Source of the DNA: Oculina patagonica
Lineage: Eukaryota
Direction of reading: 5' to 3'
NCBI RefSeq assembly: GCF_052425735.1
Contig: NC_135763.1
Span: 17,438,298-17,502,297, forward strand
DNA: 64,000 nucleotides
The first letter of the stretch is position 1. Every line of letters starts with the position of its first letter. The translations under genes and the position numbers were made by a program. The notes below the pieces were generated by a model. The model was not told where the DNA came from. It ran no database searches and was given only the letters and a program-made list of their open reading frames with translations. Of this stretch, positions 7,320 through 59,367 are shown one piece after another.

Positions 7320-7396
7320 ATGGCATCTAGTCCTGCTAGAGACGTCGGCGACGAAGACAGCTATATGCGAAAATTAGAGACGATTAGAGATGTAAG
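7320..7396 (+). CDS. ZC4H2: ZC4H2 exon 1 (MASSPARDVGDEDSYMRKLETIRDV), donor GTAAGA
   Basis: ATG at 7320 and a phase-2 donor at 7397. Upstream are CCAAT/ATTGG boxes (7200-7240) and a GCCGCCATATTG YY1-like element. Confidence 0.7.
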
Positions 7397-8936: not shown

Positions 8937-8978
<42 letters not shown>

Positions 8979-9958: not shown

Positions 9959-10576
9959 GTAAGTCAAGTGACATTGCCAGACCATAAATATTACCCTGCT
10001 TGAAACATTTTTATGTCTTTGTTATTTCAACTATGAGTCAGTTTACCTGTGTTTGAGCCTAGTGGCCCATTAAGCTGGAGCCTATCCCGGTTCAGTAGCA
10101 TGAAACGACTAGGAGTATTTCTCTCTCTCTTTCCCCCAGCATAAATTTCCCTGGTAACCGTTTTCACACTTGGGTGGAGGGAGGCACTAATAATGTGAGA
10201 GTAACATGTCTTGCCCAAGAACACAACACAACGATCCAAACCAGGGCTCAAACTCAGATTTGGAGTCCAGCGCACTATCTATTAATTAGGTCACCTTACC
10301 TCCCACACACAATATACCGATATGAAAAATTAAGTGGGCATGCATGTAAAATATGATTTCAAGTGCATGATTTACATACATGCTGTATGTCCATATATCT
10401 TTGGATATAACCAGTGATTAATACAGACAATCTCTAATGTCAGACACACCATTAGAAACTGAAACTTACTAAATGTACCAAGTTGCATGCCGGTACTGTT
10501 TCATCACACTAGCAAGATGAATTGTTGGACAATTTTAACCAAGGCTGGTTAAGGATTTTCATTTTTTTTTTTTCAG

Positions 10577-10743
10577 ATGGAAAATACAATCAAGCAGTCT
10601 GAATCTGAGAGGGAAAGAGGATTAGATACTCTTAGAAGATTGCATGAAGAATACAAACCACTGAAGAGAGACATTGACAAAATGAGAAGCTCTCTGGGTC
10701 TGGAAAAAATAGCCAACCTTGATGAAGAAAGTAGTCTTGCAGA
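10577..10743 (+). CDS. ZC4H2: ZC4H2 exon 3 (MENTIKQSESERERGLDTLRRLHEEYKPLKRDIDKMRSSLGLEKIANLDEESSLAE)
   Basis: Acceptor TTTCAG at 10571-10576 and donor GTAAGT at 10744. This is homologous to the human VMENTIKQSENDLNKL...RRLHDEYKPLKEHVD stretch. Confidence 0.85.
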
Positions 10744-11876
10744 GTAAGTTACAGTTTAAGCTTTGTACTTGAAAAACGATTGTTACTCTGATAACTACTG
10801 TGATTTTCAGTACATAGCAAACTCCAAAGTTTTTAGTTTTACCAATGACTGCAATTTCAGGCTGTTATCAATTCAATCTGTGATATTATTTTATACTATG
10901 ATCAGACTTAACTGCAAAATTGAAATAGTAACTGGGACGTGTATTAAGATATTTACAGCTAAGTTGGAAACGAAGATGCAAGCTCAAGGGTAAAGGTGTC
11001 ATGCCCTGTATGCAATTTTAGTCTGAAATGTAACTTGTTTTGATTGCATCATGTTGTCTACATAATTTTAAGAAAAAATGCATCTGGTATTTGACTGACT
11101 CTACTTTTTTCGACGTTTTTGCTTGTTTACAAGCTAAAAACGTAGAATAGGGGTTAGTGGACAAAATTTGGAACCACATATTTGTAAACTCTCAAGGGAC
11201 TTTTTTAATTTCTCAAGGGACTGTTTTAATTTCTCAAGGGATTACTTTCCGCTGTGGGTGATCACTTGCGATCTCGTGAAAAAAACGTGACTTGTCACAT
11301 TTACAAACGTTATATAACAATTTTAAAAGTGACATGTCAGCTTTCTTATCTCAACGCACGTGTGTCTGAAAGGCGATCTATAAAAAGCGTCGCACAAACA
11401 ATGGATTGCGTAACTAAAACACGAATAAATAATCACTAGCACTTACATCGTTTAAAAATTACAAACGTCAAAAATAAACCATACCAAACAACTCGCTCTT
11501 TTCAAAGATATTATTGAAGTTAAAACAAATGCAAGAGATGGGGGCTTCTTTTAGCTTAGGAGCGGTTAAAAATTAGGCCAAATTTGGTCGCTACATGCAA
11601 GCGCAACTCTATTTCGTCATCAGCCTAGGTCGTTAGGGACGTGACCTCGCGTTGACAGGGAATGACAGCAATGTTGCATGAATCGGCTTTACAACATGCA
11701 ATCGTATCTACGCAGTTCGAGTGGAATTTCAGTCAAAGCTTAAAGACAGCAAAATTCTTTCTTATTTCATCTTCAAATATAATTCGAAAGCATTCACTGT
11801 ATATATGGCTTTTGTTTAATCCTGGGTCTTGATATCCGACCCTCGCAGAGCCTAGACAAAACGCAGCTTGAGTGTA

Positions 11877-12090
11877 ACGATTTGTTTACGCTGCAATTAT
11901 ATTTTGCTGTTTCATTTGCTAATTTCGCTGCCGTAATCGACTGCCTTGAAAGGTCCTTGCAATTTTAAAGTATAGAATTGTCAGATCTAGGTGAAATTTG
12001 CACTGTTTATTTGTGTAATGTTAAGGAATATGTGTATAAAATTACCCGGCGCGGACAAGCCATTTTTGAGCCAGTTTTCTCCGACAGTAG
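11877..12090. repeat. copy 1 of a ~200-bp segment duplicated within ZC4H2 intron 3 (copy 2 at 12237-12410)
   Basis: ttttgctgtttcatttgctaatttcgctgccgtaatcgactgcc...gcactgtttatttgtgtaatgttaaggaatatgtgtataaa...acccggcgcggac recurs ~357 bp downstream at ~95% identity. Confidence 0.8.
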
Positions 12091-12236
12091 TCCAGAGTAG
12101 TCGGAAATATCTGTATTTTTTGTGCTTTTTTGTGGAGCAATCGTTACGCTACGGCCTTGAACACATTGAAGAGTGGTCTACCTATAACAATTCAGATATG
12201 GCGTCACAAAATGACAAAAACAAAGCGTCAAACGCA

Positions 12237-12410
12237 TATTTTGCTGTTTCATTTGCTAATTTCGCTGCCGTAATCGACTGCCTCCGAAAGGTCCTTGCAA
12301 TTTTAAAGTATAGAATTGTCAGATCTCGGTGAAATTTGCACTGTTTATTTGTGTAATGTTAAGGAATATGTGTATAAATACCCGGCGCGGACGAGCCATT
12401 TTTGACAAAA
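12237..12410. repeat. copy 2 of the ~200-bp intronic duplicated segment
   Basis: See copy 1. Confidence 0.8.
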
Positions 12411-12877
12411 TTATATGGCTGCATTTCCTCCGCGAAGATAGGAAATTGTTAAACTAAACTACAAAGAAACTGTAATGATAAGTTCGAAGAACAATGCACA
12501 GGATAAACCTTCGACTCGTACTTCATGCAAAAACGTCGATATCTCGAAGAGACTTTGATTGAAATAATCAGCAGGTGCTGGTTTTTGGATCAACACCGAG
12601 CCTTAGTCCATTTTCACCAACTTCATAAAACAAGTTGCACTTGCCTTTTAATTTTTTGTACCCTTGGTCATTGTTAGCCAACAAAGAAACATGTGTCATT
12701 TTGCTGTAACCACTGACTACGTTCCAATCACAATATGTTTGAAGTCACAATGGACATTGGTGGCTCACTTACTTTATAAAGAACTTGCTGTTAGCTTCTG
12801 CTGTATTCTAAGAAGCATTCAAGATGTCTTTTTTTGTTGATAATTTAACGCAAACTAACCCTTCTTCCATTTCCCAG

Positions 12878-13160
12878 GTTTCTTGAACGTGCCCCACCTG
12901 GTTGGAAGCCAGAACCACAGGAACCCCCTCCTCCCCCTGTGGCCTCCCAGTTAGCTGCAGCGGCGGCTGCTGCACAGCAGCTCGTCAACAAGCGGGGCCC
13001 TCCTGGTGAAAGGCACTTCCGCCAGCAGCAGCCACCTCCCATGAAGGCGTGCCTGTCCTGCCACCAGCAGATTCACAGGAATGCCCCCATCTGCCCGTTG
13101 TGTAAAGCAAAGAGTCGTTCTCGACACCCAAAGAAAACCAAGAGAAAGCATGAAGACTGA
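12878..13160 (+). CDS. ZC4H2: ZC4H2 terminal exon (…[44 protein letters not shown])
   Basis: Acceptor CCCAG at 12877 and stop TGA at 13158-13160. The C4H2 zinc-finger box [28 protein letters not shown] is essentially identical to human ZC4H2. Confidence 0.92.
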
Positions 13161-14270
13161 GAGAGTTGATGACGGTGGTCGTGTAAGAGGGCTTATTAAA
13201 AGACGGGCTTCAATAGAGAATCAAGTAGATTTTGGCAAGTATTCGTATTTACTGAAACGTTTAATATAAGAAAAACGTTTCTGTTAGGCGCTATTTAAAA
13301 TTGTATTCTGTGTACTGAACTACCGCTTAAGCTAAATGTTCGTAGAGTCATTCGAAATCACTTTTTCGTGTTAAAGGACTTCCCGAAGTCAAACTTGCGT
13401 TGCTGCGCGCATCTTATGACCGCAAAATAAAACAACTCGCTCCAAAAATACACTGAGATACATATTTATGAAACAGTTATTTAAAGAATTGTTAGAATAT
13501 ATAATCATTAATATATGCTAGCCTTATTTATTTAATATTGAGTTAGGCACAATTTGTAATCATAAGTGACGTCGAGATAAAAAGAACTTAAAATCTATGA
13601 CTACACGTAAAGTTTTAACAGTTAGTAATAGTTTACTTGATATAATCATGCTGTAATCGAGAATATTTAAAGAAAAGTAGTTGTCAAGTTATTAAATAAA
13701 TGTATAAACGAAAAGAAAAGTACTGCTTATTTGTAGTTACGTTCGGTCCGTTCTTTTTCTGCGAGCAACTTCCTGGGAAAGATTTCCGTATAGCCGCATG
13801 CTTGAGTATACATTCATGTACGTGTGCAATTTCTTCTATATACGTCTTCACACGCGAACAGCAGTCATCATGAAAAGAACGAGATTAAAGAGGCTATGTC
13901 ACGGTATTTTAAGTCATTTTTCGGATTCCTTTCAAATTGAAGGACAACCTCAAATAGACTGTCCACAGCCTCTCGATTTTTCAACGCAGAACGCAAACGA
14001 AGCGAGCGCGAAGCTCGAGCGCGAAGCTCGAGCGCGCGTCGACTGATTTTTCAACGCAAAAACGCAAACGAAGCGAGCGCGAGCGCGCGCGGGGAGGGGG
14101 GCGGGAAGCGATCAAGAACACGAAAAAATAGAGGGGTATGGACAGTCTAAACCTCAAAATAATAGTTTTCTAACGTAGAAAAACACCAATGGAGAAATAA
14201 GGAACAAAAAATAATGGAGGACGGTTTCAACTGACAAAGCGGATTACAGCAAGGCGCCCAAAAGTGTGAC

Positions 14271-16434: not shown

Positions 16435-16904
16435 ATGGGAAACGGTAACACAAAGGCGGGAACTGTTCGAAAAGTTATGCAAGCTAACAAGAAATTCAGA
16501 GCGGCGCTTCAGCTTTGGGAAGACGATCGCTCCGATAGAGAGCCGTGGAAAACGATTCTCAGGAATGGACCGTCGGCTGTGTACCGCAAAAGAAAGGAAC
16601 TTATTGAATTCAAAGACGAAGAATTGATGGAATACTTCAACAATCTTCTCCAAGGACATATACAAGCAGATTCAAGATGGAGTCTTCCAACAAGAGAAAT
16701 TGCTATATTTTTGAGTTCAACTTTCACAGACATGACAATAGAACGGGACTTGCTAATGGAAGACGTGTATCCATATTTGCGAGAATTTTGTCGACGGTTA
16801 GGGTATAATTTCAGTGTAGCGGACATGAGGTGGGGAGTGCGTGACGAGATGACAGACGAACATCAAGCGGTAGAGATTTGTGTGACAGAAGTTCAAAGGT
16901 GCAG
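16435..16904 (+). CDS. NWD1/NWD2-like (NACHT and WD repeat) gene, exon 1: MGNGNTKAG… with an N-myristoylation-type MGxxxT motif and the start of a DUF4062-like region (IAIFLSSTFTDMTIERDLLMEDVYPYLREF)
   Basis: ATG at 16435, a 470-nt open frame and a GTAAGT donor at 16905. IFxSSTFxDMxxERDxL is the DUF4062 signature that starts NWD1 proteins. Confidence 0.8.
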
Positions 16905-17215
16905 GTAAGTAAATTGTTCATGCGTTTATGATTGTTTAGGCAAATAATAGTTAAAAAATAGCAGAGTGCATTTCTCTTCCTAAATGGCGTGTGAGTTTTT
17001 TAAACAACTTTACAAAAAAAAAAAACACATATTAATTGTTTTAAGATGTGATGTCCGTGACGTGCATGTATTCGCAAGAAAATCTAAAAATAATGTTGCT
17101 TAGTAACCTTTAAATAAATAATTGAACGTGTACAAAAATCTGTTATCATTTTTCAATACTTTATAAATGTTGAAGGATAAGGTCTCGATTAGTTGCGAAC
17201 CAATTTACCACCTAT

Positions 17216-28186: not shown

Positions 28187-28653
28187 GTAAATAATCGTAT
28201 TTACATAATTAAGGACCTCATATTATTACGTATAGAAGTTAATTCGGACAATAATTCTTTAACTAATGTCAGATAGGTTCCAGTGCAGTTTCGCAAAAAA
28301 AAGAAAAATTGGAAAATTTTGTATTTTTAACCCAACACCCTGTTCACCTCTTGAAACTATGAGTGGATGTCATCTTCAGGGGTTCTCTATCTTTACCCGG
28401 ATGATCTTGCCAAACAGTGCAACCAAGTTTGAAAATTGTAAAAATAAAAACAAAGAATGAAAACGATTAAAATTTTGTACGTGGTTAAAATAACCGAACT
28501 CCCCCTCATTGCTTCACTGTAGTAATTTTCAAGACGGTAAACTTTAGTAAAGAATTTACGCACAAAATGGTTTTTGCTTTGTTCTTCAAGTCAGGTGTGT
28601 GGTGCTTGTAACTAATAGTATTTCGAGTCAGGTGTTTTCGGTTGTCAATCCTG

Positions 28654-28654
<1 letters not shown>

Positions 28655-28706
<52 letters not shown>

Positions 28707-28725
28707 GTCAACCAATCAACCAAAC

Positions 28726-28813
<88 letters not shown>

Positions 28814-28889
28814 CAATCAATCAATCAATCAATCAATCAACCATCAATCAGTCAATCAATCAATCAATCAATCAACCAATCAGTCAGTG

Positions 28890-28928
<39 letters not shown>

Positions 28929-28930
28929 GT
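28655..28930. repeat. (CAAT)n microsatellite with CAGT/CAAC variants, ~275 bp, intronic
   Basis: Read directly. It explains the spurious INQS-repeat ORFs at 28599 and 28642. Confidence 0.95.
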
Positions 28931-29019
28931 TTTAGGCTATGTTGCGTGAATTGTATATCTATAAGAACGTATCGATGCCACTATTTTTGCGATTACTTGA
29001 ATAATTTCCTCTACTGAAG

Positions 29020-37914: not shown

Positions 37915-38522
37915 GAGGGTCCCTTAGAGGTGGCTGGTAACGGTTTCCAGCACTTTCCAGCTCTTATATTTGACGGGTCAGTACTACAAATCTTAACCAG
38001 TTGATGCTACAATAATGGTATAAAATTAATGCCCAATGATTGTAAATATTTGTGATTATTTTCATGACGTCATTGTCTATAGCAAGTATACCGTAAACAC
38101 CCTAATTGGAATGCTTATACTCAAAAACGAGCTCGATGACCCCATTTTATTATTGAACATTGACAGCATGAAGATACAATTTGCAAAGTTAAAAAAATTT
38201 ACGAACCGTTTCAGAGCCACCTTAAATTTTCAATTTTTTAAGGTGGCCGAAACTTCGTAGAATTTTTTAACTGCAAAAATTCTTACATGCTAATCAATTT
38301 CAATAATAAAAAATGGGGTATCGAGCTTTTGAGTTATAACATAAACGAAATTAGGTTTAGTATGTTGCTATAGTAACCAGTGACGTCATGAAAATAATCA
38401 CAACATATTCACCAATATTGGGATAATATACATATGTAGCAAATGATAAAGATTTGTATTACTGACCCGTCAAAGTAAGAGTGGAAAGTGCTGGAAACCG
38501 TTACCAGCCACCTTAAGTAGGC
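37915..38522. mobile_element. foldback element: ~240-300-bp inverted arms forming a 600-bp hairpin with a central mini-palindrome CCACCTTAAATTTTCAATTTTTTAAGGTGG
   Basis: 37915-37985 (GAGGGTCCCTTAGAGGTGGCTGGTAACGGTTTCCAGCACTTTCCAGCTC…GACGGGTCAGT) is the reverse complement of 38458-38522. GTGATTATTTTCATGACGTCATTG at 38050-38075 is the reverse complement of 38375-38400. The right arm is contiguous with TIR copy 1 of the large element. Confidence 0.8.
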
Positions 38523-39135
38523 TTTCTCCAAAAATCGACTAATATCGCCTTTCGGCGGCACAAATTGAAAAAATAGATTTCGCTCGTATTTTGCCCATAG
38601 ATAGGCCCTAGTGAGAAACTAAACGGACTGCAGTTAGTTTTTCCTAATACAGCTTCCTTTCGTAGAAATATGCAAAAAAAGATTTTGCCCCAAATTGGGC
38701 GCAAAATCAACTTCCGGTTTGACTGATTTTATTGAAAGTTTGATCGTCTCGTGCGTTATACTGCAGCTGTTTATTGATATTTCAATAATATTTATAATGT
38801 CTTTAGGTATTTAGTGTATGACTGAGCGAAAAATAAAACAAATCGAGATTTATTTTTAGCCTGAAACGGGGATAAATCCAAAGGCAAAATTTGCAAATGA
38901 GTAGCAAGCGAAATTATGCAGTAAAACTCTGCCATTTTTTTCTATGTGCGATAACCTAAAATATCGTAAAAACAATTTTTATGGGTTAACTAGACATTTA
39001 TCTAATAAGATACTCAAAAAAATCTCTGGGGAAAAGGTTTTTAGTGGCCCACTTTGGCCTTTGTTTATCACTAGTTTTGCCGTAAATCAGAAAAAATGTA
39101 AACAATTGCGTGACACTGCTTGTCACAATACCCGC
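38460..39135. repeat. long inverted-repeat copy 1 (~650 bp), the left terminus of the composite element
   Basis: About 85% identical to the reverse complement of 46041-46712. For example, TTTGCCCATAGATAGGCCCTAGTGAGAAACTAAACGGACTGCAGTTAGTTTTTCCTAATAC matches GTATTAGGAAAAACTAACTACGGTCCGTTTAGTTTCTCACCAGGACCTATCTATGGGCAAAAT, and GGTTTTTAGTGGCCCACTTTGGCC matches GGCCCGCTTTGGTCTG…. Confidence 0.8.
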
Positions 39136-40124
39136 TGACAGTTTCACAATTTCCTGTATTTTAAATAATCTAATCATTTTAAAATACACGAAAAGGATAG
39201 ATGCCAAATGCCAAATGTAAATGGAAAAGAAACTTTTACTTGTTTTATATCAATATCGCGAGTGGCTGTGCTGTTAAGTGTTCTTCAGCTGAAATTCAGA
39301 ACCAGGCAAATGTACGTGCTTTGTCTACTTTTCATTAAAGTAATTCAGAAGAATTCAAAAGGGCTTAGTTAAGATTTTTTCCTTCCTATTGCACCACTCA
39401 TGACAGAGTTTGTGACCAGGGCGTTCTGCTACAAGAGAAATGATAATTTTTGTCGCTCCTTTTATACTTCATTTAATAATCCTCAAAAACACTTAATACA
39501 AATGGCAGATTTAATAGCGTAACTAACCAACTTACAATGGTTTCTCACACTTCAATTTGTTACCATTTTTTATGGTGAAATTAACTGTCACTTACAAGGA
39601 TATGAAATTATTATAAAAGGATCTGCTAGCAGTTCAAATCTTTTGGCTAGATAGAGAATTCACAGCATTTAGCTTTGGCACGGAATCAACTATGAAAGGT
39701 AACATGGAATAGCACACAATATTCCGGGAATATTGGAAACAAAGTATGCCTTTCTAGGCATACATTTATAGATGTCCCTTCTTTCACTCCTTTCGTTCAT
39801 GCATGATCATTGTAGGGATATTTTTAGATCTAGTAATATTTCTGTTCTAGTATAGACCACTGAAAATTGCCAAGTATTTTCAACTCTACTTTCACCTAAA
39901 ATCAGTGCCAACTAGACTCAAATGCTTACCTCCCATCCTGCTGTCCACATAAAGCGGTTTCAGTTCCATAAGGAAATCAACATTGTTTTAAAATTTACAA
40001 ATTCGTAGGTGGGATTATTGCAACGAGCCTGTGGCATATCAGTGGCCGGGAAGGACGGGGGGTGTTTTAAAGGGCTTACAGAGCGGAGTTTTAAAATATT
40101 GCGAAAACCTACGTGTATGTAAAG

Positions 40125-40215
40125 CACGAACTTTGCTGGTTTTCACTTGAAGCAGGTACCAGACTTCATTACCCCTTGAAGCTTATCGATGTAAGGTTTC
40201 TTTTGGGTCAAGTTA
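40125..40215 (-). repeat. duplicated fragment of the 3' end of the transposase-like ORF (encodes TQKKPYIDKLQGVMKSGTCFK*), ~650 bp downstream of the real stop
   Basis: 40130-40215 is ~80% identical to 40795-40870, in the same orientation. Confidence 0.75.
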
Positions 40216-40789
40216 TCATGATCATAACATGGGAAGCACCAATATCGCTAGATATTGCCAATTAGTATTTCATATTAAAAACACATTATATTTGTAGACA
40301 TGTTACCTCGCTGTTGATAAAGCGGAGAAAAATAGCTTTTTTAGCAGTACCTACTAGACTCCACATACCATCCCTCTTATAGGAAGGGAAAGGCCCACCT
40401 TCTTCACCGCTTCTTTGGCGTCCCCTTTGTTCCCCTTTTGCTGTCTACACATAGCGTTTTCTGTCGCATTTGGGTGATATTTCATTGTGAAAGCCCCCCC
40501 CCCCCCCCTAACGCTCTAAGCCTGTTTTAAGCAGGGCTTAGCTTGAAAGTTTGCACTTTTTAAACAAGGCTGGAGCCGGGTGGGGTCAAGGCAACCAGAT
40601 TGTGGAAGATAAAATATCTGAAAGGAGTATGGAGCAGGGTGCTAATAGTTTTAACTATTTTAAAAATACCGAGAAAGCTTCTACTTAATACTTAATACTG
40701 TTACAAAATGATCTTCTTTAAATGATGAGATAACGCATTTGTCAATACTTTAACATTGGACGGAGAAAATGCGGCTTCTTTGTAGGCTT

Positions 40790-43534
40790 TCACTTGTAGC
40801 AGGTACAAGATTTCACCACCTCTTGAAGCTTATCGATGTAAGGCTTCTTGCGGGTTATCGTGACATTTGAAACATCAATGCCTAGAAAGATGCAGATGTC
40901 GCGCAAAACGGTAACACGAAAAGTAGCTGCAAGTTTGCCACTGGAGGCAAGCTCGCAGATGTTATAAGTGTCATGCATAATGGGATGCTGAAGAGCTACT
41001 AAATTGGACACATCTCTGCGCATCTCACTTAACGCTTCTTCATGGCGCGCACAGATCTCTTCTTCCTCGTCTTCCTCGGTCACAACATCAACATTTCGTT
41101 TGGCAGCCAGTCTGGAAAAAAAGCCCCGGATTTGCTGCGTTGTCAGGAATTCGCTGAATGTGAACAGACGATTGCCATTGGAATCTTTGGCAGTCCTCAT
41201 TTCTTTGGACACAGTGGCCGGGTCAAGCTTTCTTCCTGTTTTTTGCCCTATCTCAAATTTCTTTATGAGGTAATCTTTTTGATTGGAATTGAATCTTTTC
41301 CCAACAAAGGAACTCTTGAGCGCCCAGCCCATGGACATAGGAGGATTCTGAACATCACAACTGCTATCTTTTCCGAGGCACGCCACGTCGCCTAGTTCCT
41401 CGACTTTGGATCCACCCTTTTCAAGCTCATAGGCATACCTTAGCATTGCTCTGTCCAGAAGTGTCTCCTGTTCCAAAGCACGTTTGTGCTTTCCACATTG
41501 AAGGTGTTGCTCAAGACTGGAGTACCTTTGATATGTCATGATGCAACCTTCTTCAGGACAAGAAAACAATCCAGAATTGGCGTTTCCCTCGTCGCTGGCA
41601 CTTCCGTCATCATCGCCGTCAGACGAGGTAACTTCTGCAGGGCATTTAACCTTCCGAGGTTTCAAATCGACAAATGGCAAATGAGTGCTCCTTTCACGAT
41701 CAGTTCCGATATCGACAATCAAGTGACGTTCGCCATCGCTATCAGTCACCTGGAATTTGCTCCAAGGAATTAATTTTCCCGGGCCAATTCCGTATGCCCT
41801 TCACACCCTCAAACAATCGCTTTCATACTGGATGTTGTTAACAAAACTAACACCTTCCCATCTGACGGCTTTCTGCGTTTGCAACTGAGGCGTTTCTACC
41901 TCAATGTCATTGCCTTCATTGAGGTAGATTTGCATGTGGGATTTAATGGTCGCCGCTTTTCGGTCACATGCTCCCTTGCCACCTTGTGGATCCGAAAAAT
42001 CCATTCTCTTCAAGGTAACACCGGCTTTATCTGCTACCACTTTAGCACCAACAATGGTCGAAACACAGTGATAGCACCCCGCGTTGTCCTGTCTGTAGAA
42101 TACTGATTCAAGGTTTGGCATACCAATCTTTAACTTTGTGAGAACATCCGCCATTATGTCAAGCACTGAGTGACTGTCCTGGTTGCAAGCTTGAAAAATG
42201 TGCACGAATGCCATCGTCTCGATTTGTCGGTTTGGTCGCTGCCTTAGTGCCACTGTGATGTGCCAAGGTATCCCTCGCTTGGCAAACCAGTCGCTTTGAC
42301 TTTCTCTATACTTTCTGGGAAGGAACTTCATGGCCCAATCTTGGACCAAGAAAACAGAATTTTCCTCTAACATTTCCATTACATCGACTCTGGCCTCATC
42401 TTGGTTAACTGCACGAAGAAGGTGAGCTTTCCAGGCACTGATGCTACGCCTTGCTTGTTCAGTGTTAAAGGTCAACTCGTCCATTTCTTCGCTTTCTGTT
42501 GCAATTAGCTTAAGGGCGTCTTCTATTTCTCCAATGCTCACCTCCACCAGGCTGCAACGATCACACACCCCATCATGGATATGACTACATTCTCCCTGGT
42601 ATTCGGAGCATTTGGCATCACTGAGCGCAAAACATCTACAATGGTCTGGGACAGTCGACGACTCAGAAACATGTACCTTAAAAAATCAAAGAGGATCGTA
42701 TGAGAAATTACGCTTTAAAAACAAGCACGTGTTAGTCTCAAAGCTGTTACCATGTTTCAAGGGTTATTTGTTGTCCTTACCGTGAAGTCACTTTTCAGGT
42801 AACGCTTGGCCAATTTCAGTTGCTCCTTTCTTTGTTTCGCCCAGGACATACCCATTCCAAGCTCTCCCAGTCGCTCAGCCACAATTTCAAGTTCCTCAAA
42901 CGCTTTCGCGCCAGAAGCAGTGATGTAGTCCAGACCTTGTAAGGATTTCCTCACGGAGGCAGAACAGACGTCAAGAATTCGAAGCAAAGAGCTTCGGCTC
43001 AAGCAGGTTATGCCTGACTCCTTGCAGTACTCTTGATATTCTGTGCTATACGTTCTGGAATCATCACGTCCTGATAACATTGGGTACTGCGATCACTTCA
43101 CCGGAACTCAAAGTAAGGTTTTTCTGTCCAAATGGTAAATCTTGAATGATGTGCTGACTGGTTATGAAACAAATGAAGTGGTCAACCATTTCCGGGGAAA
43201 CGTACATTCTCTTCTGGATAGGTTTAGGAACAGGAGAGCCTCTACCATGGATCAGCAGGTGCTGTCTGGCAGAATCGATACTGTGCGAGGTTTGAATCCA
43301 CCCAACCAGATAGACATTGCGACTGTATCCCACTGGGTAGCATTTGTAGCATTCGCTAAGACAGTAAAAAGATGACTTTTTTGTTTCTGAGGATGTTGAG
43401 GGAAAATGCTGATTTATTGCCTTTGAAGAGACCAGTTTGTCCCACAATTTATCAGAATCTTCGCCAGCTATAACTTCCAATGAGGCGGCTACAGCCTCAC
43501 TCGCCTTCTTTACATAGTAACGTTTGTTCTTTCG
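40790..43534 (-). pseudogene. putative DDE/D transposase-like gene (unknown superfamily). At least 2 exons are joined by a GTAAGG…TTTTTTAAG intron (42677-42780), and the frame is interrupted by an in-frame TGA (41798-41800) and a frameshift near 43064-43080
   Basis: Blocks on the complement strand: 43534-43064 (KK/R-rich NLS-like start RRRKNKRYYVKK…); 43080-42781 (…KSLQGLDYITASGAKAFEEL…AKRYLKSDFT|GTAAGG); 42676-41801 (VHVSESSTVPDHCRCFALSDAKCSEYQGECSHIHDGVCDRC…LVQDWAMKF…VFYRQDNAGCYHC…MDFSDPQGGKGACD…ESDCLRV*); 41797-40790 (…CPEEGCIMTYQRYSSLEQHLQCGKH… ending RKKPYIDKLQEVVKSCTCYK*). Confidence 0.5.
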
Positions 43535-43904
43535 CCGACGTCACCAGGGTGTCTAAAGAAGTCGAATAGGATTAGTCTCTGGCGCAAATTACAGATGACC
43601 TTCGACAGGAGTTTTTTGGCAGGTGCACAAGACGGAGAGGCATAGACCCGGGGTATCGGTTAAAAATGCTGACCTCGCCTCTGTAACTGGGGTACTCGTG
43701 AATGACTTTGTCTGTTACTGTACTGATTTCCTAAAAAACGCAATGGCAGATAATTTAAATAAATCCACTTTACTATTTTACGCCCCTAAGCGCAATGCCG
43801 CGTACAACTACATGAAGACCAATAAAAACCTATGAATCAACCGGAATGGCGGGGGATGAACCTCTTTATTCGAATGGCCAACGATTCGTCATTTGCGATA
43901 TATT

Positions 43905-43985
43905 GTCAGTGATCAATGTTCACTGGAGCCATCAGTCAATCAGTCAGATCCATCAGTCAATCAATCAATCAAGCAAGCAAACGAT
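43905..43985. repeat. (CAATCAGT/CAAT/CAAG)n microsatellite inside the element
   Basis: Read directly. Confidence 0.85.
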
Positions 43986-46040
43986 CAGTCAGTAGGTCAA
44001 ACATATCATCATTAATACGCTTCACCTGTCACTGCCATCAAGTGTTGCTGGGGAAGTAAGTGAGAGGGAGAATAGACTAAGTGATGAAGTAAGTGATGAC
44101 CACTATAAAAAATTTAAATTTTACATTTCCCGTAGATTAACTCTCGTTTTACTGGACACGCTCGGGGCGTCGTTCAGTGCTCAGTATTTCCGTATATCAG
44201 TGTCCGCAATAGCGGGGTGTCCGTAAGGCGAGGGTTGACTGTAGATCATAACAAGGGGGCGAATTAAAAACAAATCTTTCATGTAAACAGGCTCTTAACA
44301 TGCTCTAATCTTAATCGTGAATTTTTTTTTTTTTTGTTTACACCATTACTCCTTTAATTTAAACTTTTAAGGATAAGGAAGCCCTAGGTTTTTTGGGTCT
44401 TGATTGTGTCCCCCATCCGATCATCCCCGTCACTCGAAATCCCAAATATCCCCTCCCCCCACCCCCAAGAGGTGGTCATGCCTTTATATATATTTTCTCA
44501 TTTTGTCCGAAATAAATAAATTTTCACTTGCTTAAAACGGCATGGATTTCTTTTAAGTAAAGGCTTATCATTGTCACATTTTTCTTACCCTGAATGTCAA
44601 CTCTTTCATTTGACTCACAACTTCTTCTTCCTTGTTATTATGTCGACAAGTGGAGGCGAGTTCTTTGCTGCTAATTTTGACAACAGTTCTCTTTTTGGAC
44701 GCTGAACTCAAAATTTCCCTGCATGATCTGCACATACCTTATGCAAACAGAAGGAAAACTATCAGACGTTTTTGAAATGCCTGTATAAGACAAGAAGCGA
44801 TAACCCGAGTGAGAAGTCGATATCTACCTGATCCAACGGGAACCAAATGTCCCGTTCTTATAGAATTAACTTCGAGAAGTCTTTTTACCCCTCTTTCGGC
44901 TTTTGGATATTTTCCTCTCACCATTTTATTAGAATTATCTTGAGGACCCTACATCTTTCGGTTCCTCTTGTCCAGCCGAGACCAAGGGAGAGCGAGTGAT
45001 GGGCAAACAGTCATCACCGAATTTTGTGGAGTGTTAAACATCGCCGCACGAGCAAGTATTAACTCAATTTCACTTTCCACAAGGAATAAAAGAGTTGTGC
45101 TACATTTTTAGTGCACGATAAAAGTGGGACGATCTCCGTAGACTGCTTTCTGTCTCTGCGATCAAAGGAGCACTGACCACCAACTAATGACTTAAAAGAA
45201 CAACAAGCATTCATCTTGTTCGAAGAGTCGTGTTTACTGAAGTGAGGAATTTCGGATAAGGACGTGTTTTCAAACTTAGATAATTTAATTTAACAATTTC
45301 TTATCGCAAGTAAAATCGATTTAGGACTGATCCAAATATTGCGTTGAATTCTGGCGCTAATCATATTCGAAGTTTCAGTTCATTGAAATGTACTATTCGG
45401 GCTAAAAAACGTAGAACTCTGAATATAACTTAAAAAACTATAAGGCAATTGTATTTTTCTGTTAGATCTTATACCATAAAGGTGTTTATAGTCCTCAGTA
45501 ATACCTTCAGTGTTGATACCTGTTAGTAAATAATTCTAACCAACATTTTTTTTGCTTTATATTTTGCTTCGCTTATAGGATAATAATTGGGAAAATATCG
45601 GCAATCTGATACAAAAAGAAACAACAACGCATTAACGAACAAAATCAACATCATTGCACTCCGGCGGCAAATACTTATAATTTAATTATTTGCTAGTTCC
45701 CTTCAGGGTCCTTCAGATCACGTAAAGAAATAAACCAAACAACATTGACTCATTGTTACGTTTTATAATTGAACTGAGAATGCTTTTTATTTATACGACC
45801 GGTTTTTGAAAATGATCGAGGGGTTAACAGCTTAAAACTACTAACACAGAATTTCGCTAGCTTAAACCTTACCGACGAGCCGTCTAGCATGTTGTGATAA
45901 AGAGCGTGTTAAGATCACGCAATTATTTCAAAACGGGTAAAGGGAAAATCTATTATTGCTTTTACCTTTTCAAAGAGTTTAGCACATGACCGTTTCTATA
46001 CTTGGGTTGTTTGAAAGTATTTGTTTCAAAAAGATAATTT

Positions 46041-46712
46041 CCCTCGCGCTTTACTAGCCTTGTCACGTAATTCCTGTCACGCTAAAACGGCAGATTTTCG
46101 GCGAAATTAGTAATAAGTACAGACCAAAGCGGGCCACTTAAAACCTTTTTCCCAGAGATTTTTAAGATATCCTATCAGATGGGTGTCTCTTTAACCCATA
46201 AAATGTATATTCACGTTATTTTAAGTTATCGCACATAGAAAAAAATGGCAAAGTTTTACTGCATAATTTCGCTCGCGACCCAATTGCAAATTTTGCCTAT
46301 CATTTTATCCCCATTTCAGGCTCAAAATTAATCTCGAATTGTTTTATTTTTCGCTCAGTCATACAATGAAGACCTAAAGAGAATATAAATACTATTGAAA
46401 GATCCATAAACAGCGGCAGTAAAATGCGCGAGGCGATCAAATTTTCAAAAAAATCAGTCAAACCGGAAGTGGATTTTGAGCCCAATTGGGGCGAAATCTT
46501 TTTTGACATATTTCTACGAAAGAAAAATGTATTAGGAAAAACTAACTACGGTCCGTTTAGTTTCTCACCAGGACCTATCTATGGGCAAAATATTAGCGAA
46601 AACGTGCATTCCATTTGTGCTGCTGTCTGGTTGATAATTCTAGGAAGTCGCACTTAATACCGTAAAATTTGAAAAATACTCCTACCCTCTCAAAAGTAAG
46701 CCCCAGACCTAA
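46041..46712. repeat. long inverted-repeat copy 2 (~650 bp), the right terminus, ending ~110 bp before the NWD terminal-exon acceptor
   Basis: See copy 1. Confidence 0.8.
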
Positions 46713-46820
46713 AGTATTTTAAAAGCCGCACAAATATCTCAGACGCAAAAGCTCTTTCAGCAATAACCTTCTGCTTAATCCAGTATTCAATCCGCGTTTT
46801 TTTTGTATCTCTGCCAACAG

Positions 46821-47420
46821 ATCACAGAGGCAGCTATATCAAGCACTTGCGGTAGACTTGTGGCAATAAGTGTACCAAGACAAAACAGCAGTCAGGAATG
46901 GATGAAGGGACCCGCCGACATACACATGTGGGATCTTAACAACCACACAGACTGGAAAGTCCAGTTGACTTTGCATTCCTCTATAAGTCGTCAGCTGAAA
47001 GTTGGTTGTGACTATCTGGCGACGTTTGTTCAATATCGTAAAAATGTTTCTGATGCTAAGAGAATTAAAAGCGGTATGCGAAGAAGGGGCTCAAACGTTG
47101 CTTACTCTGTTGTCGATGAAGCAGTCATCCAGCTCATTGATAAGCAGGGATCGACGCTTCAGACTTTTCAAATTCCTGGCAAGTTTTCTGGTGTGAGTGT
47201 GGTTAATAGTGAATCCACTTTGAGAAGCATTTCGGAAGGACTGTTGGTTTATAGTCTTCAGGAAGGCGTCGTGAAGCTACAGAACGTCAAATCTAACAAA
47301 GTGTTAGGAACCTTTACCGTAAACAACACGGAGATAACAGCTGTGAACATTGCATCAAATGGGAAATCTGCCGTTGTAGGCTGTGCAAATGGTAATGTGC
47401 ACATCATTCAGATGATTTGA
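46821..47420 (+). CDS. NWD-like terminal exon (…ADIHMWDLNNHTDW…TAVNIASNGKSAVVGCANGNVHIIQMI*, WD40)
   Basis: Acceptor CTGCCAACAG at 46820, phase 0, stop TGA at 47418-47420. A 9-kb intron containing the composite transposon precedes it. Confidence 0.75.
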   Translation: MTEAAISSTCGRLVAISVPRQNSSQEWMKGPADIHMWDLNNHTDWKVQLTLHSSISRQLKVGCDYLATFVQYRKNVSDAKRIKSGMRRRGSNVAYSVVDEAVIQLIDKQGSTLQTFQIPGKFSGVSVVNSESTLRSISEGLLVYSLQEGVVKLQNVKSNKVLGTFTVNNTEITAVNIASNGKSAVVGCANGNVHIIQMI

Positions 47421-47965: not shown

Positions 47966-49840
47966 ATTTATTGCGACAATCACAATGGTGTGGTGATGTT
48001 CTGCGTATTTGCGTGCTATTTTATATAGATTGAAGAATCGTTGCCCTGAGGTATGCGTTATTTTTTAAATTTTTTGGATTATGTATACGAACTGTTCTTA
48101 AAAGATCTAACTGAAGCTACAAACGGCTAACATGGTGTCTTTCTACCGATGTAAACTTGCGATCAGATCAATTCATTTTTTCGCGATCTTATATTTAAGT
48201 ATTACGAGGGTAAAGAGTAAATTTTAACACGGAAGGGAACTTAAAGGTTAAGCCCGTATTGCCAGTGCCCTTGTGTTGTGTTCTTTGCAAGCGCATTCCC
48301 TTGTTTCTCATTTATAAATTCAGTTGTAACTAATTTGTTTGTTTGTTTGTTTTTTTCTATTAACGTGAAGTTTCCGTTAAAAGTAAGTTCCCTTATAATT
48401 ATACAAGAGTATTTCTTGGTTTCCTTGAAAGAAATGGTAATGTACACTTTGTTTCAAAATCCCTAGGAGTACCTTGGTCTGGCCGCAAATCTTACTCTGC
48501 TTACAAACTTAAAGTATAAGGTTACTCATCCAGTGCTGACAACACCCAATTAAACAGAGACAAGATCATGTTCATATGTGACTTTTATTTTCATCAAATA
48601 GAAGCTGGTTTTCCTTGTAACAGCTAGAGTATGGAGTGCGTGAATCTTACACAAATAAAAGCACGCACTGACCGTATTATGAACGAAAAATTTGGAATAC
48701 CGTACGGTATGAAGAAATTTTTAGCTCGTAATACGTTCAGCAAGTGTATTTATTTGCGCACAAATGCACGAAACATAATATTCTAACCCTTACGTTTACT
48801 AAAATACTAAAAATCTTGCGTTGATTCATTTAACAGTCGCTAAATAAGGCAAATTGAAATAAATAGTCATGAAAAAAATGTTTTCTGGCGTTGTAAAAGA
48901 GTATTTTGTCATGGAAGTTAAAAGTAAATAAAAATATGCCACATGGCCGTTTTTTTTTTGTTTTTTTGTTTGTCTGTTTTTTTTTTTTCAAAGTTTTGCA
49001 GTACCTTGTAATATTGAATTAGACTATTCCTTGGTACTTTTATTGCCTTTTGTGTCATTTAGTTACCTTCCTTATCTTGAAAAAATTGTATCTTCAGCAC
49101 AGTGCATTATTTTGATATTTAATGACTCGTGGAAAACCAACTTTCATTTGTTTTAGAATATAGTTAAGTTTGTTCGTCAGTTCATTCGTAAATCCATATC
49201 AATGTGAGTTTTCTTTCAGTTAATTTCTTGTTATATCACTTCTAGTTCACTCAGTGTGTAGCTTGGCTTTCTCAGTTGTTGTATAATGTCAAAATGTGGG
49301 ATTGATCCTGTTGAGAAAGAAAAAATAAAATTTGAGCGATCTAGAAAAGATGGACTGAGAGGAAAAGGATGCGTGTTTCTTTCTTCATTTGTTTTACATT
49401 GCCTTGTAGGTTTAAGAGGTCCTTTTTTTCTTTAAGCTAAGATATTCTGTTTCAGCCATTTCAAATTTCAATTTTAAGGTATTGATATTGTTTCGCGATT
49501 GCAGTCTGCGATGGGAACTAAATAAATTTAATCGTTTGGAGTGAATAAGATGGGTAGGGATTAGATACTGGAAGTAAACAATGGGTAGGGGTTAATAATT
49601 CCAGCCGGCAGAACATAGAGTTATGGGGTGTTTGACCTTACCTTTTAAGCGTGTACTTTTGAATCCTGAGGCAAGAACGAAGAACAATGGTAGCCAGACA
49701 TTTGTATCTACAATGTCTACAATGACGAATTATTTGATAATTAGCACTTTGTCCCTTTATGCACAACAGTAAATTAACGTCTCTCGTCATGGAATCGTTA
49801 CAAGTGTCGTTATTTGTAATGCATAACATAATAAAGCACA

Positions 49841-51574
49841 TCACATTTTGTACTCAGGAATGCATGACAATTTATTCCAGACAAAAAGGTGTACAATCTG
49901 TGAGATACTGCCAAATATGCGTGGTCTTTGTAGGCTTTTGCTTGCTTGGCGTACTAATTTTCGCAGGAATTATTTATAGTCTTTATACTGTGTGTTTCAT
50001 ATCTTACCGTTTGAGATGTAAAAAGAAGTGTTTTTCAGTGACTGTAAGGCGTCAGAAGGTTTGCTGATTTCTTTACCTCTCTCCTGAATAAATGAAAATA
50101 AAAAATGTTCTTACTTTTATACTTTTTGTACAGTTTCGTTATTCCTAATTTCATCATCTTGTTTTCTTTTCATCTAACACCATTTGGTTCTCAAATTATC
50201 CATCAGGGCACAATTTGCATGACTAACATTAATTTTCGCTTTTTTCTTCTCAGGTTGTCTGGTTTACGTTCACTTTATTTGTTTTCTGCACGTCATTTAC
50301 AATTTACGTTGAATGCGTTTGCCATGCATGTGCACTTCCAAGTTCCTTTTCCCCTCCTTCTCCCCCTCTCCCCGCTTCCATCAGTTTGTATTAATATCGT
50401 TAATTTATGATCATTAACTTACATGCTCAAAATATGCCACAACTTCGCTGTTAGCCCGGTCTTTTTCATGTGATGCTGTTATTCCACAGAAAAATGATTG
50501 CTTAGTTTTGTCAACGTGAATGATGTCAAAATGGCAACGAGGGAAATCTGTGGCGTTTTCAGGCGTGTGCCATACATCGTTTGATTTTATCGTCTGCAAA
50601 AAAAAGAACATAATTATTGTCAATAAAGGTTTCTAACCATTAGTTGTGTTACTGGTCTCTTTACTTTTGTTTGCGATCCAAGGGGGGGCTTGGGAAGATA
50701 TCAAAAGAGATATAGCGCTTTGTCGTATCTAGCGGTCAATGTTCTTGGTAAAAAACATTACTTCTAACACGGTCTATGCCATAGTTGTAAGTAATAAAGG
50801 AGATCCGTAAATTGACTGTCATTTCGGAGAAGCAAGCAAGGGATTAAAAAGCCATTTGACTGAAAGTATTTCTGGGGTGCCAACTAGAAAAAAAACCGTA
50901 TTAAAAAGATATCCAACCTAAGGGTGTTTCTATGCATACCTTCTCTTTGTTTCCTTTGATCTGCCATCCTGGTTCCAGAGCAGTAAACTCAATTCTGATG
51001 TCTTCATCACTGTTAGACACAAACAATCCAGCGAGAGCTGTCAGTAATCTGTTTCCCAGTTCTTCTTCTTTCTGGCAAACGTTCTGTTAAAAAAGAGAAA
51101 CAAATGTGTACGATGTTACTATTCGCAAAGCTCATCAGTAATGCTAATGTAGCTGAACAAAATTTTGAGAGCATTTGCGAATCACTGATTTCAGTTATAA
51201 TTCGTTACCTTAAAAGCTATTGTTGAATCATCTATAAGATAAACCCGAATTTTCCAGTCTTTTCCTTGTGTTGGTTTTTTTCCAAAGATCGCCATTTGCA
51301 TTCGTTTCTGGTCGTCATTTCCTGGAATTCCAAAAGCTGCAATTTCAATGTCTTCCTGCAGTGGTGGTAGAATCACTTCAATGTCGTTATGCTTCTCTTT
51401 TACTTTGTCTTTGGGGTAGACCTCGGTAACATTTCTCCAGCTTGTCTTTTGAGTCTTTCCTTTGCAGTGGCTCAGCAGTGGTCGGCATTTGACAGCAATA
51501 TTCCATGTGTTACCAGGAGCCCTCTTATCTTTTAAGCGTGTACTTTTGAATCCTGAGGCAAGAACGAAGAACAA
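49841..51574 (-). pseudogene. downstream duplicate (copy A) of the same gene's 3' part: partial exon 1 (51209-51574, truncated at the duplication junction) plus exons 51083-50940, 50593-50423, 50083-50008 and 49953-49841
   Basis: The exon-intron structure and splice sites are identical to copy B. The 5' part of exon 1 is replaced by copy-B 3'UTR sequence at the 51526/51527 junction. Confidence 0.55.
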
Positions 51575-51718
51575 TGGTAGCCAGACATTTGAATCTACAA
51601 TGACGAATTATTTGATAATTAGCACTTTGTCCCTTTATGCACAACAGTAAATTAACGTCTCTCGTCATGGAATCGTTACAAGTGTCGTTATTTGTAATGC
51701 ATAACATATTAAAGCACA

Positions 51719-51832
51719 TCACATTTTGTATTCAGGAATGCATGACAATTTAGTCCAGACAAAAAGGTGTACAATCTGTGAGATACCTGCCAAATATGCG
51801 TGGTCTTTGTAGGCTTATGCTTGCTTGGCGTA
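51719..51832 (-). CDS. unknown gene, copy B terminal exon (…IFGSISQIVHLFVWNKLSCIPEYKM*); the 3'UTR contains AATAAA
   Basis: Acceptor AAAATTAG, stop TGA at 51721-51719 (complement). The phase is consistent across all 5 exons. Confidence 0.45.
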
Positions 51833-51886
51833 CTAATTTTCGCAGGAATTATTTATAGTCTTTATACTGTGTGTTTCATATCTTAC

Positions 51887-51962
51887 CGTTTGAGATGTAA
51901 AAAGAAGTGTTTTTCAGTGACTGTAAGGCGTCAGAAGGTTTGCTGATTTCTTTACCTCTCTC
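51887..51962 (-). CDS. unknown gene, copy B exon 4
   Basis: Acceptor TTTTCATTTATTCAG, donor GTAAGA, 25 codons plus 1 nt. Confidence 0.45.
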
Positions 51963-52301
51963 CTGAATAAATGAAAATAAAAAATGTTCTTACTTTTATA
52001 CTTTTTGTACAGTTTCGTTATTCCTAATTTCATCATCTTGTTTTCTTTTCATCTAACACCATTTGGTTCTCAAATTATCCATCAGGGCACAATTTGCATG
52101 ACTAACATTAATTTTCGCTTTTTTCTTCTCAGGTTGTCTGGTTTACGTTCACTTTATTTGTTTTCTGCACGTCATTTACAATTTACGTTGAATGCGTTTG
52201 CCATGCATGTGCACTTCCAAGTTCCTTTTCCCCTCCTTCTCCCCCTCTCCCCGCTTCCATCAGTTTGTATTAATATCGTTAATTTATGATCATTAACTTA
52301 C

Positions 52302-52472
52302 ATGCTCAAAATATGCCACAACTTCGCTGTTAGCCCGGTCTTTTTCATGTGATGCTGTTATTCCACAGAAAAATGATTGCTTAGTTTTGTCAACGTGAAT
52401 GATGTCAAAATGGCAACGAGGGAAATCTGTGGCGTTTTCAGGCGTGTGCCATACATCGTTTGATTTTATCGT
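52302..52472 (-). CDS. unknown gene, copy B exon 3 (TIKSNDVWHTPENATDFPRCHFDIIHVDKTKQSFFCGITASHEKDRANSEVVAYFEH)
   Basis: Acceptor TTTTGCAG, donor GTAAGT, 57 codons. Confidence 0.6.
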
Positions 52473-52792
52473 CTGCAAAAAAAAAAGAACATAATTATTG
52501 TCAATAAAGGTTTCTAACCATTAGTTGTGTTACTGGTCTCTTTACTTTTGTTTGCGATCCAAGGGGGGCTTGGGAAGATATCAAAAGAGATATAGCGCTT
52601 TGTCGTATCTAGCGGTCAATGTTCTTGGTAAAAAACATTACTTCTAACACGGTCTATGCCATAGTTGTAAGTAATAAAGGAGATCCGTAAATTGACTGTC
52701 ATTTCGGAGAAGCAAGCAAGGGATTAAAAAGCCATTTGACTGAAAGAACCGTATTAAAAAGATATCCAACCTAAGGGTGTTTCTATGCATAC

Positions 52793-52936
52793 CTTCTCTT
52801 TGTTTCCTTTGATCTGCCATCCTGGTTCCAGAGCAGTAAACTCAATTCTGATGTCTTCATCACTGTTAGACACAAACAATCCAGCGAGAGCTGTCAGTAA
52901 TCTGTTTCCCAGTTCTTCTTCTTTCTGGCAAACGTT
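52793..52936 (-). CDS. unknown gene, copy B exon 2 (NVCQKEEELGNRLLTALAGLFVSNSDEDIRIEFTALEPGWQIKGNKEK)
   Basis: Acceptor TTTTTAACAG, donor GTATGC, 48 codons, phase 0. Confidence 0.6.
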
Positions 52937-53060
52937 CTGTTAAAAAGAGAAACAAATGTGTACGATGTTACTATTCGCAAAGCTCATCAGTAATGCTAAT
53001 GTAGCTGAACAAAATTTTGAGAGCATTTGCGAATCACTGATTTCAGTTATAATTCGTTAC

Positions 53061-53494
53061 CTTAAAAGCTATTGTTGAATCATCTATAAGATAAACCCGA
53101 ATTTTCCAGTCTCTTCCTTGTGTTGGTTTTTTTCCAAAGATCGCCATTTGCATTCGTTTCTGGTCGTCATTTCCTGGAATTCCAAAAGCTGCAATTTCAA
53201 TGTCTTCCTGCAGTGGTGGTAGAATCACTTCAATGTCGTTATGCTTCTCTTTTACTTTGGCTTTGGGGTAGACCTCGGTAATATTTCTCCAGCTTGTCTT
53301 TTGAGTCTTTCCTTTGCAGTGGCTCAGCAGTGGTCGGCATTTGACAGCAATATTCCATGTGTTACCAGGAGCCCTCAAACAACAATGCTCAATCAGAACA
53401 GGCGGAGGAGAGGTGCTTGGAGGGACTTTGTAGCAGCCGCTGACTTGATAGAGACTTGATTCGTGATCTTCATCGCTCGCTGTTTCTAATGCAG
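53061..53494 (-). CDS. unknown gene, upstream copy (B), first coding exon in the window (…SDEDHESSLYQVSGCYKVPPSTSPPPVLIEHCCLRAPGNTWNIAVKCRPLL…KIRVYLIDDSTIAFK); an earlier exon is expected beyond 53494
   Basis: Acceptor TTTTAAG at 53495-53501 (complement) and donor GTAACG at 53060-53055 (complement). There are 144 in-frame codons and no ATG, so this is an internal exon. Confidence 0.55.
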
Positions 53495-58138: not shown

Positions 58139-58330
58139 AAAATCATGTCAGAGGATATTCCACCTACGAAGCAACACCGCTACACAGATTTAGGCTGTGA
58201 GCACGACAAGTATTCTGTTGACATATACAGCTTCTTGCAGCCTGGCCAGCAGGAAGGAAATTGGTCACGTAAACAGCTCTTCCTGTACATAACAAGAGCT
58301 GTAGAAAACAACAGAAAGGTCTTCCTACAG
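58139..58330 (+). CDS. unknown + strand gene, internal exon (KIMSEDIPPTKQHRYTDLGCEHDKYSVDIYSFLQPGQQEGNWSRKQLFLYITRAVENNRKVFLQ)
   Basis: Acceptor TGTTGCAG at 58138, donor GTATTT at 58331, 64 codons. Confidence 0.55.
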
Positions 58331-58371
58331 GTATTTATTTCACTTACCATTACCATTACCATTACCATCGC

Positions 58372-58427
<56 letters not shown>

Positions 58428-58438
58428 CTGCCATCATG

Positions 58439-58511
<73 letters not shown>

Positions 58512-58522
58512 CTGCCATCATG

Positions 58523-58598
<76 letters not shown>

Positions 58599-58609
58599 CT
58601 GCCATCATG

Positions 58610-58658
<49 letters not shown>

Positions 58659-58712
58659 CTGCCATCATGATCATCATTATCATCATCATCATCATCCTCA
58701 TCATCATCATTA
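58372..58712. repeat. (ATC)n microsatellite organised as a higher-order repeat, with a CACTGCCATCATGATC punctuation every ~60-90 bp; it starts 40 bp after the exon donor at 58331
   Basis: Read directly. It explains the poly-Ile/Asp/Met ORFs at 58121, 58180 and 58340. Confidence 0.95.
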
Positions 58713-59367
58713 GAACAATTGAAACAGCAGGAATAACAAAGCGAGTGCATTAGTCAAGAGCTGGAGAATTCAACGAATTGGACAATTACCTTCATCATGT
58801 TTTGCTCGTTTCATCTTTTATTTATTATAAACTTCTAAAACAATCATCATAACGATCATTTTAACCTTCATTACTACTAAAGTCCTTCAAAAGTAATATA
58901 CGAAAACTGGACTTGTCATGTTCACTATAATTTATAATTTTCCCGTCTAGTGTTTAGTGATCAACTATTCATCGAAGTGGAGGTGGCTTTTGGTGAATAC
59001 TTACCGAGCCGCGAAGCGGCGAGGTAAATATCATTTACAATTTATAGCTCTTTTATATAGGGCGTATTTATTTGAAACCCACGCGTATAGCCGTCGCATT
59101 TGGTCGTTGGAATTTTTTTTTGTTTCGAGCTAAAAACAATAAAACATTCCAGCGAGCAAATGCGACCGTTACACGCGTATATTGCAATATAATTTGATTT
59201 GATATTTCCTATTTATCTGTCTGTCTATCTGTCTGTCTACTGAGAATTTCTTCGTAGCTCCCCATATTACAGTTTAATCTATATTTGTATTGAAATTAAT
59301 TTGGAAGAACGAATTTCGATGTTAGCCACGTAACATAACATGACAATGATTATTCGTTCGTTTCCAG

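Follow-up and report, generated by a model that had tools for sequence, protein, structure and literature searches.

A TTAA-flanked element with long inverted ends

The stretch of DNA analyzed here, referred to as the window, comprises 64,000 nt of the forward strand of Oculina patagonica contig NC_135763.1 (positions 17,438,298 to 17,502,297), and coordinates without another label are window positions. An initial annotation, made from the letters alone, had placed a transposase-like protein of no confident superfamily on the minus strand at 43534-40790. We found that this region is enclosed by an 8,137-bp DNA transposon at 38517-46653, and we conclude, with a probability of roughly 0.93, that the element is an old, inactivated copy of an autonomous cut-and-paste transposon of the Sola3 group (Sola superfamily) in an anthozoan-type genome.

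The element is delimited by two terminal inverted repeats (TIRs) of about 570 bp, which are 84-88% complementary to each other (12-16% divergence). A relative from another assembly, L001, has the same layout of TIR, upstream exon, main exons, and TIR, and both window TIRs are homologous to both of its TIRs. Because L001 shares this organization and these ends, the inverted repeats in the window represent the ends of one element and not a chance pair of unrelated elements. Inverted repeats of 460-830 bp also surround the gene in three more distant copies, L003, L004, and L005, and the sizes of the elements range from 6.9 to 10.4 kb. The first ~100 nt of the TIRs carry blocks that are conserved even between lineages with ~50% protein identity, including a subterminal block located ~45-95 nt from each tip. 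A search of the TIRs for short subterminal direct repeats or a repeated binding motif yielded nothing convincing.

At every aligned end, in the window copy as well as in L001-L005, homology begins immediately after the sequence TTAA, and TTAA is found on both sides of the window element, L001, L003, L004, and L005. The latter four copies have the family consensus ends TTAA-GAG...CTC-TTAA, while the window copy and L002 read TTAA-GT(A/G); the window tips are GTA at the 38517 end and GTG (reverse strand) at the 46653 end. The L001 copy is particularly informative, as it splits the open reading frame (ORF) of a long interspersed nuclear element (LINE). When the L001 flanks are rejoined around exactly one TTAA, the LINE frame is continuous (...GPSHWCFNSSLLSDEKYIELISAKYDEW...); zero or two copies of TTAA would break it. 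Since a single TTAA restores the LINE ORF at this site, TTAA is the target-site duplication.

A four-exon transposase gene, broken in the window copy

The transposase gene has four exons on the minus strand, a model derived from the intact or near-intact copies L001 and L004, and its start ATG is located upstream of the region that was initially annotated (Table 1). The start Met of exon 1 is common to L001 and L004. Exon 1 ends at a phase-1 donor (cag/GTAGAT in the window) whose position is conserved in L001, L002, and L004, as either GTAAGG or GTAGAT. The small exon 2 is probable in the window, and its counterpart at 8343-8431 of L004 has a consensus acceptor and donor with compatible phases (...CRxCRxIL...). 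Exon 3 matches the intact L001 exon with 54-82% identity in two frames by tblastn, and blastn gives matches to L001 and L002. The proposal that the gene contains spliceosomal introns is borne out by intron 3, a GT..AG intron whose position and boundaries are kept in relatives of only ~45% protein identity; these relatives begin at the (Q)VHVS boundary, and the donor is identical in L001 and L004. We estimate the intact transposase at ~1,100-1,150 aa, of which exon 3 contributes ~340 aa and exon 4 ~650 aa.

Table 1. Features of the transposon, in window coordinates
Feature	Position	Strand	Basis
Left target-site duplication, TTAA	38513..38516	.	Read directly; homology among five element ends begins directly after TTAA
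Low-coordinate TIR (3´ side of the gene)	38517..39088	+	Inverted-repeat pairs; alignments of ends
Exon 4 (last): Cys/His cluster, DDD core, C2H2 finger, C-terminal domain	40790..42676	-	
Intron 3, 104 nt, GTAAGG...TTTTAAG	42677..42780	-	Read directly
Exon 3, helical N-terminal region	42781..43700 (5´ boundary approximate)	-	tblastn, blastn
Probable exon 2, small, ...CRSCREIL...	44619..44737	-	ORF 44574-44735; limits inferred from the L004 gene model
Exon 1, Cys-rich N-terminal domain, frameshifted	44828..45214	-	tblastn with L001 ORF 5691-6209; ATG 45214
High-coordinate TIR (5´ side of the gene)	46093..46653	-	Inverted-repeat pairs; alignments of ends
Right target-site duplication, TTAA	46654..46657	.	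Read directly; alignments of ends

All of the window exons carry lesions. Exon 3 has several frameshifts, in-frame TAG, TAA, and TGA stops, and deletions, and exon 4 has lost 66 nt at about 41900, removing a conserved helix of the core. The two defects that had been noticed earlier are both real: the in-frame TGA, at 41803-41801, replaces a Trp codon (TGG) that intact relatives keep (CLRVWKAY), and there are frameshifts near 43070. The window copy is therefore dead, in that it cannot make the transposase. Given the divergence of its TIRs, its mutated tips, and its broken gene, this copy is not autonomous, and it is probably not mobilisable either.

The 3´ non-coding region of the element also holds a 78-nt duplicate of the end of the transposase ORF, covering its final codons and its stop (40131-40208, minus strand). 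The duplicate, detected as a direct repeat and by tblastn with the last 20 residues, is 85% identical to 40778-40855 and lies ~580 bp downstream of the real stop; a counterpart was not seen in L001. Apart from this fragment, we found no second copy of the transposon family within the window.

A DDD catalytic core with an RNase H-like fold

The motifs quoted in the initial annotation are all present on the minus strand where it had located them. When 42676-41801 is translated, LVQDWAMKF contributes D113, and VFYRQDNAGCYHC contains D197, the Asp of RQDNAGCYHC. Additional Asp residues at exactly the annotated distances of +29, +32, and +41 from D197 correspond to D226, D229, and D238. Both D113 and D197, which had been named as the first and second catalytic residues, are invariant in 45/45 aligned relatives, and D238 is kept in 42/45 (D110, D194, and D235 in the numbering of the relative P0002). 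The exceptions at the third position have Asn, in copies that also bear other lesions. As for the intervening residues in P0002 numbering, D223 is not conserved in the Caenorhabditis remanei Sola3 reference introduced below, and D226 is D or E throughout. The best reading of the triad is thus the DD41D arrangement that had been put forward, with D-84-D-41-D spacing and D238 as the probable third residue in the window, D229 being the alternative. The three catalytic codons lie at about 42340, 42088, and 41965.

An AlphaFold2 model of P0002, built from the 45-sequence alignment, is confident over residues 1-350, with a predicted local distance difference test score (pLDDT) >90 over most of the core. 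Its elements follow the order b1(104-111)-b2-b3-a1-b4(188-193)-a2-b5(218-223)-helix(231-250), and the triad is placed with one D after b1, one after b4, and one in the helix after b5. This RNase H-like order upholds the earlier prediction of a DDE/D transposase fold. As modeled, the core is a compact RNase H-like transposase fold with no insertion domain. The nearest solved structure to the model is the Mos1 mariner catalytic domain, and SETMAR and Sleeping Beauty are also among the top 20. When we looked between D194 and D235 of P0002 for a C/DxxH signature, only C-x-H was found.

Putative zinc-ligand motifs and accessory regions

The minus strand contains both of the proposed zinc-ligand motifs, HCRCFALSDAKCSEYQGECSHIHDGVCDRC and CPEEGCIMTYQRYSSLEQHLQCGKH. 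Of the Cys/His cluster described upstream of the core, the part that stands is DHC-x16-C-x-H-x-H-x3-C-x2-C, which alone is conserved among relatives, but two of the listed Cys, those that end HCRC and AKC, are private to the window copy. The conserved ligands suggest that the cluster probably binds zinc. The C-terminal finger, encoded at about 41559-41485, had been read as a BED/SWIM-like C-x4-C-x15-C-x2-H. Its actual spacing is C-x4-C-x12-H-x5-H, and it is a classical C2H2 finger: in a search of PDB sequences its profile matched the fingers of ZNF410, YY1, GLI, and TFIIIA (best E 5e-4), and a few of the 45 relatives match Pfam zf-C2H2 weakly. The Cys-rich region of exon 1, the helical region of exon 3, and the C-terminal ~250 aa have no recognisable relatives in Pfam or PDB, and a model of exon 3 gave generic helical structural matches only.

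Assignment to the Sola3 group

Pfam scans of the window ORF pieces, the intact L001 exons, and the 45 relatives (E <= 0.1) found no transposase family and only weak C2H2 matches. Direct comparison with Sola cores was much more informative. Reference cores were taken from Majorek et al. (2014; PMC3985635), whose supplementary alignment includes Sola1-1_AP, Sola2-1_HM, Sola3-1_HM, Zator-1_HM, and a Sola3-clade protein of C. remanei, XP_003101956, which the authors list as Sola3 clade, E.13. The window exon matched the core of the C. remanei protein with a BLASTP E of 2e-25 (37% identity, 126 aa) and Sola3-1_HM with an E of 2e-20 (28% identity across all 131 aa of the core). In hhalign comparisons, a profile of the family matched Sola3-1_HM at 99% (E 9e-18) and Sola2-1_HM at 66% (E 5.6e-5, colinear over 121 core columns), with no match to Sola1-1_AP or Zator-1_HM. 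The blocks common to the family and the Sola3 references include DW/DY-x-KxxP, REsQxxxFGKxGxSxH, (R/K)xDNA(G/S)xYH, and (D/E)PxxGK.

The Sola superfamily was reportedly described by Bao, Jurka and Kapitonov in 2009. According to PMC10741241, Sola elements encode a DDD transposase, generate 4-bp target-site duplications, carry TIRs of 11-1124 bp, and are mostly 2-9 kb long. Every one of these traits, the DDD triad, the duplication length, the element size, and the TIR length, is found here. It is because the core matches the Sola3 references and all of the published Sola traits are present that we assign the element to Sola3, and the earlier impression that it fits no textbook family can be set aside.

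With the Sola3 group as a whole, the window element shares homology over the full length of the core, a DDD triad on an RNase H-like fold, a 4-bp duplication, and a size and TIR length within the Sola ranges. Sola3-1_HM comes from Hydra, a cnidarian host as here, but the core identity of only 28% puts the window element in a separate anthozoan lineage. The weak colinear profile match to Sola2-1_HM is consistent with a shared superfamily; however, this match is far weaker than that to Sola3, and the motif after b4 is DGCAGQ in Sola2 and DNAGCYH in the window family.

Several points weigh against the Sola3 assignment. The comparison covers only the ~130-aa core from one supplementary alignment, and the placement was made by pairwise and profile scores. 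TTAA is the target preference attributed to Sola3, and our literature search found no paper stating a Sola3 target sequence. Because TTAA is palindromic, a TA duplication with A...T termini is formally possible. The triad is drawn from conservation and the order of the model, and the N-terminal and C-terminal domains are without an assigned fold.

Alternatives to Sola3

Among the alternatives, another TTAA-specific superfamily, Kolobok or piggyBac, survives best, but we consider it very unlikely. TTAA flanks every copy, and these superfamilies share with the window element TTAA-specific insertion and a 4-bp duplication, piggyBac also having a DDD enzyme. For Kolobok, the published rule is TTAA with 5´-RR...YY-3´ termini (PMC9587614). 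The consensus termini, 5´-GA...TC-3´, follow this rule, although the feature does not discriminate between the readings. The C/DxxH signature required for Kolobok is absent, with only the C-x-H noted above, the comparison with Kolobok covering its target site, termini, and signature. As for piggyBac, Pfam DDE_Tnp_1_7 is unmatched, its insertion domain is missing from the window family, and the termini are GAG...CTC and not CCC...GGG. For both superfamilies, the direct match of the core to the Sola3 references is a further counterargument. KolobokP, which has long terminal direct repeats and a homing endonuclease, was rejected as a candidate, since the window element has inverted repeats and lacks a second ORF.

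A divergent member of the Tc1/mariner/pogo (ITm) group, such as the Visitor-like DD41D elements suggested in the initial annotation, is somewhat less probable still. The likeness is real at the level of structure: the nearest solved structure is a mariner, there is a DNAxxH-like block after b4, the D-41-D spacing is short, there is no insertion domain, and TTAA contains TA. However, the proposed Visitor-like membership did not hold up. Pfam DDE_1, DDE_3, and Transposase_1 are unmatched in the window pieces and the 45 relatives at the threshold given above, and all ends carry the full TTAA and not TA, with the caveat that the palindrome would strictly allow the TA reading. The fold alone is like that of Mos1 and other Tc1/mariner transposases; the window element and its protein are much larger, with several exons and different DNA-binding regions.

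Both remaining possibilities are highly improbable. The MULE/MuDR affinity raised by the long TIRs and by a block after b5 (FSDxQxKG) that superficially resembles the MULE SDxxKG is contradicted by a 4-bp duplication (7-12 bp in MULEs; PMC10741241), unmatched MULE/Transposase_mut Pfam models, the absent C/DxxH motif, and a catalytic spacing much too short for a MULE, the insertion domain being absent. A transposase-derived, domesticated host gene would fit the conserved introns and the annotation of some relatives as ordinary proteins (for example, "C2H2-type domain-containing protein" in Exaiptasia), but the window copy is disrupted by several stops and frameshifts and by a deletion in the core, it is framed by TIRs and TTAA duplications of its own, and the family has many copies that inserted independently in different contexts, one of them inside a LINE.

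Proposed mechanism and implications

Combining established knowledge of DDE/D cut-and-paste transposition with the anatomy of the element, we suggest how an intact Sola3 copy of this kind would move. The transposase would have, in order, a Cys-rich N-terminus, a helical region, the Cys/His cluster (probably zinc-binding), the RNase H-like core, the C2H2 finger, and the C-terminal domain. It would bind the ~570-800-bp TIRs, probably at the conserved subterminal block, and the DDD active site would cleave at the GAG...CTC tips and excise the element. Reinsertion would occur at TTAA by staggered cuts 4 nt apart, thereby duplicating the TTAA.

The window element is an ordinary decayed genomic parasite rather than a novel type of enzyme. 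In annotation, all 8.1 kb, the two upstream exons included, should be masked as a Sola3 remnant and not called a gene. Copies of this type look unclassifiable because Pfam has no model for Sola3 cores. We know of no Sola transposase that has been studied biochemically. The model sets the Sola3 core structurally beside the mariner and retroviral integrases, paired with TTAA-specific insertion, a pairing that would be of interest for new transposon tools, although the dead window copy itself adds little.

We also raise, as a tentative proposal that we think rather less likely than not to be right, the idea that the anthozoan elements form a Sola3 lineage that has not yet been catalogued. Such a lineage would combine very long TIRs (570-800 bp), each containing a conserved subterminal block, with strict targeting of TTAA and with a transposase of ~1,100 aa that is encoded by four exons and has a Cys-rich N-terminus, a C2H2 finger, and an additional C-terminal domain. 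If this proposal is correct, reviving a near-intact young copy such as L004 could yield a TTAA-specific transposase whose compact core is mariner-like.

Related copies

The family is large. At E <= 1e-3, the central exon has >1,400 homologous proteins, all of them lacking Pfam domains, and many of the 90%-identity clusters among them hold 130-348 members. The few named matches are from sea anemones (Actinostola, Exaiptasia). The upstream exon 3 has 725 homologues, again none with a Pfam domain, one of them from the octocoral Paramuricea. Related copies of the kind that the initial annotation had proposed to look for do exist, L001 and L004 being intact or near-intact. The L004 copy, at 6604-13477 of ENA ERZ26696836, is a young member of a related Sola3 family. 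It has ~790-bp TIRs that are 96-97% identical, perfect TTAA-GAG...CTC-TTAA ends, and a four-exon gene with apparently one frameshift. Judged from its sequence, L004 is a candidate for the reconstruction of an active element. In L005, the left TIR is interrupted at 3226-5573 by a nested ~2.3-kb element with its own inverted repeats of ~290 bp.

Surroundings in the window

A 586-bp element resembling a miniature inverted-repeat transposable element lies at 37928-38513; it has perfect 32-nt TIRs (AGGTGGCTGGTAACGGTTTCCAGCACTTTCCA) as well as additional, nested inverted repeats. Its end falls precisely on the left TTAA of the Sola3 element, and therefore one of the two must have inserted directly next to the other. 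A plus-strand ORF at 46803-47420, immediately beyond the right TIR, has a weak Pfam match to WD40 propeller repeats. Weak Pfam matches were also found for ORFs at 16435-16908 (plus strand, DUF4062) and 51191-51574 (minus strand, UPA domain). These three ORFs may represent exons of host genes of the NLR-like or death-domain type, and the transposon may lie in an intron or intergenic spacer of such a gene. Other features of the window include a tandem duplication of a ~1.88-kb unit at 49637-53241, whose two copies are 97-100% identical, a long (ATCA)n-type microsatellite at 28615-28950, and a 9/12-nt periodic repeat at 58264-58760 that gives rise to long artefactual ORFs on both strands.

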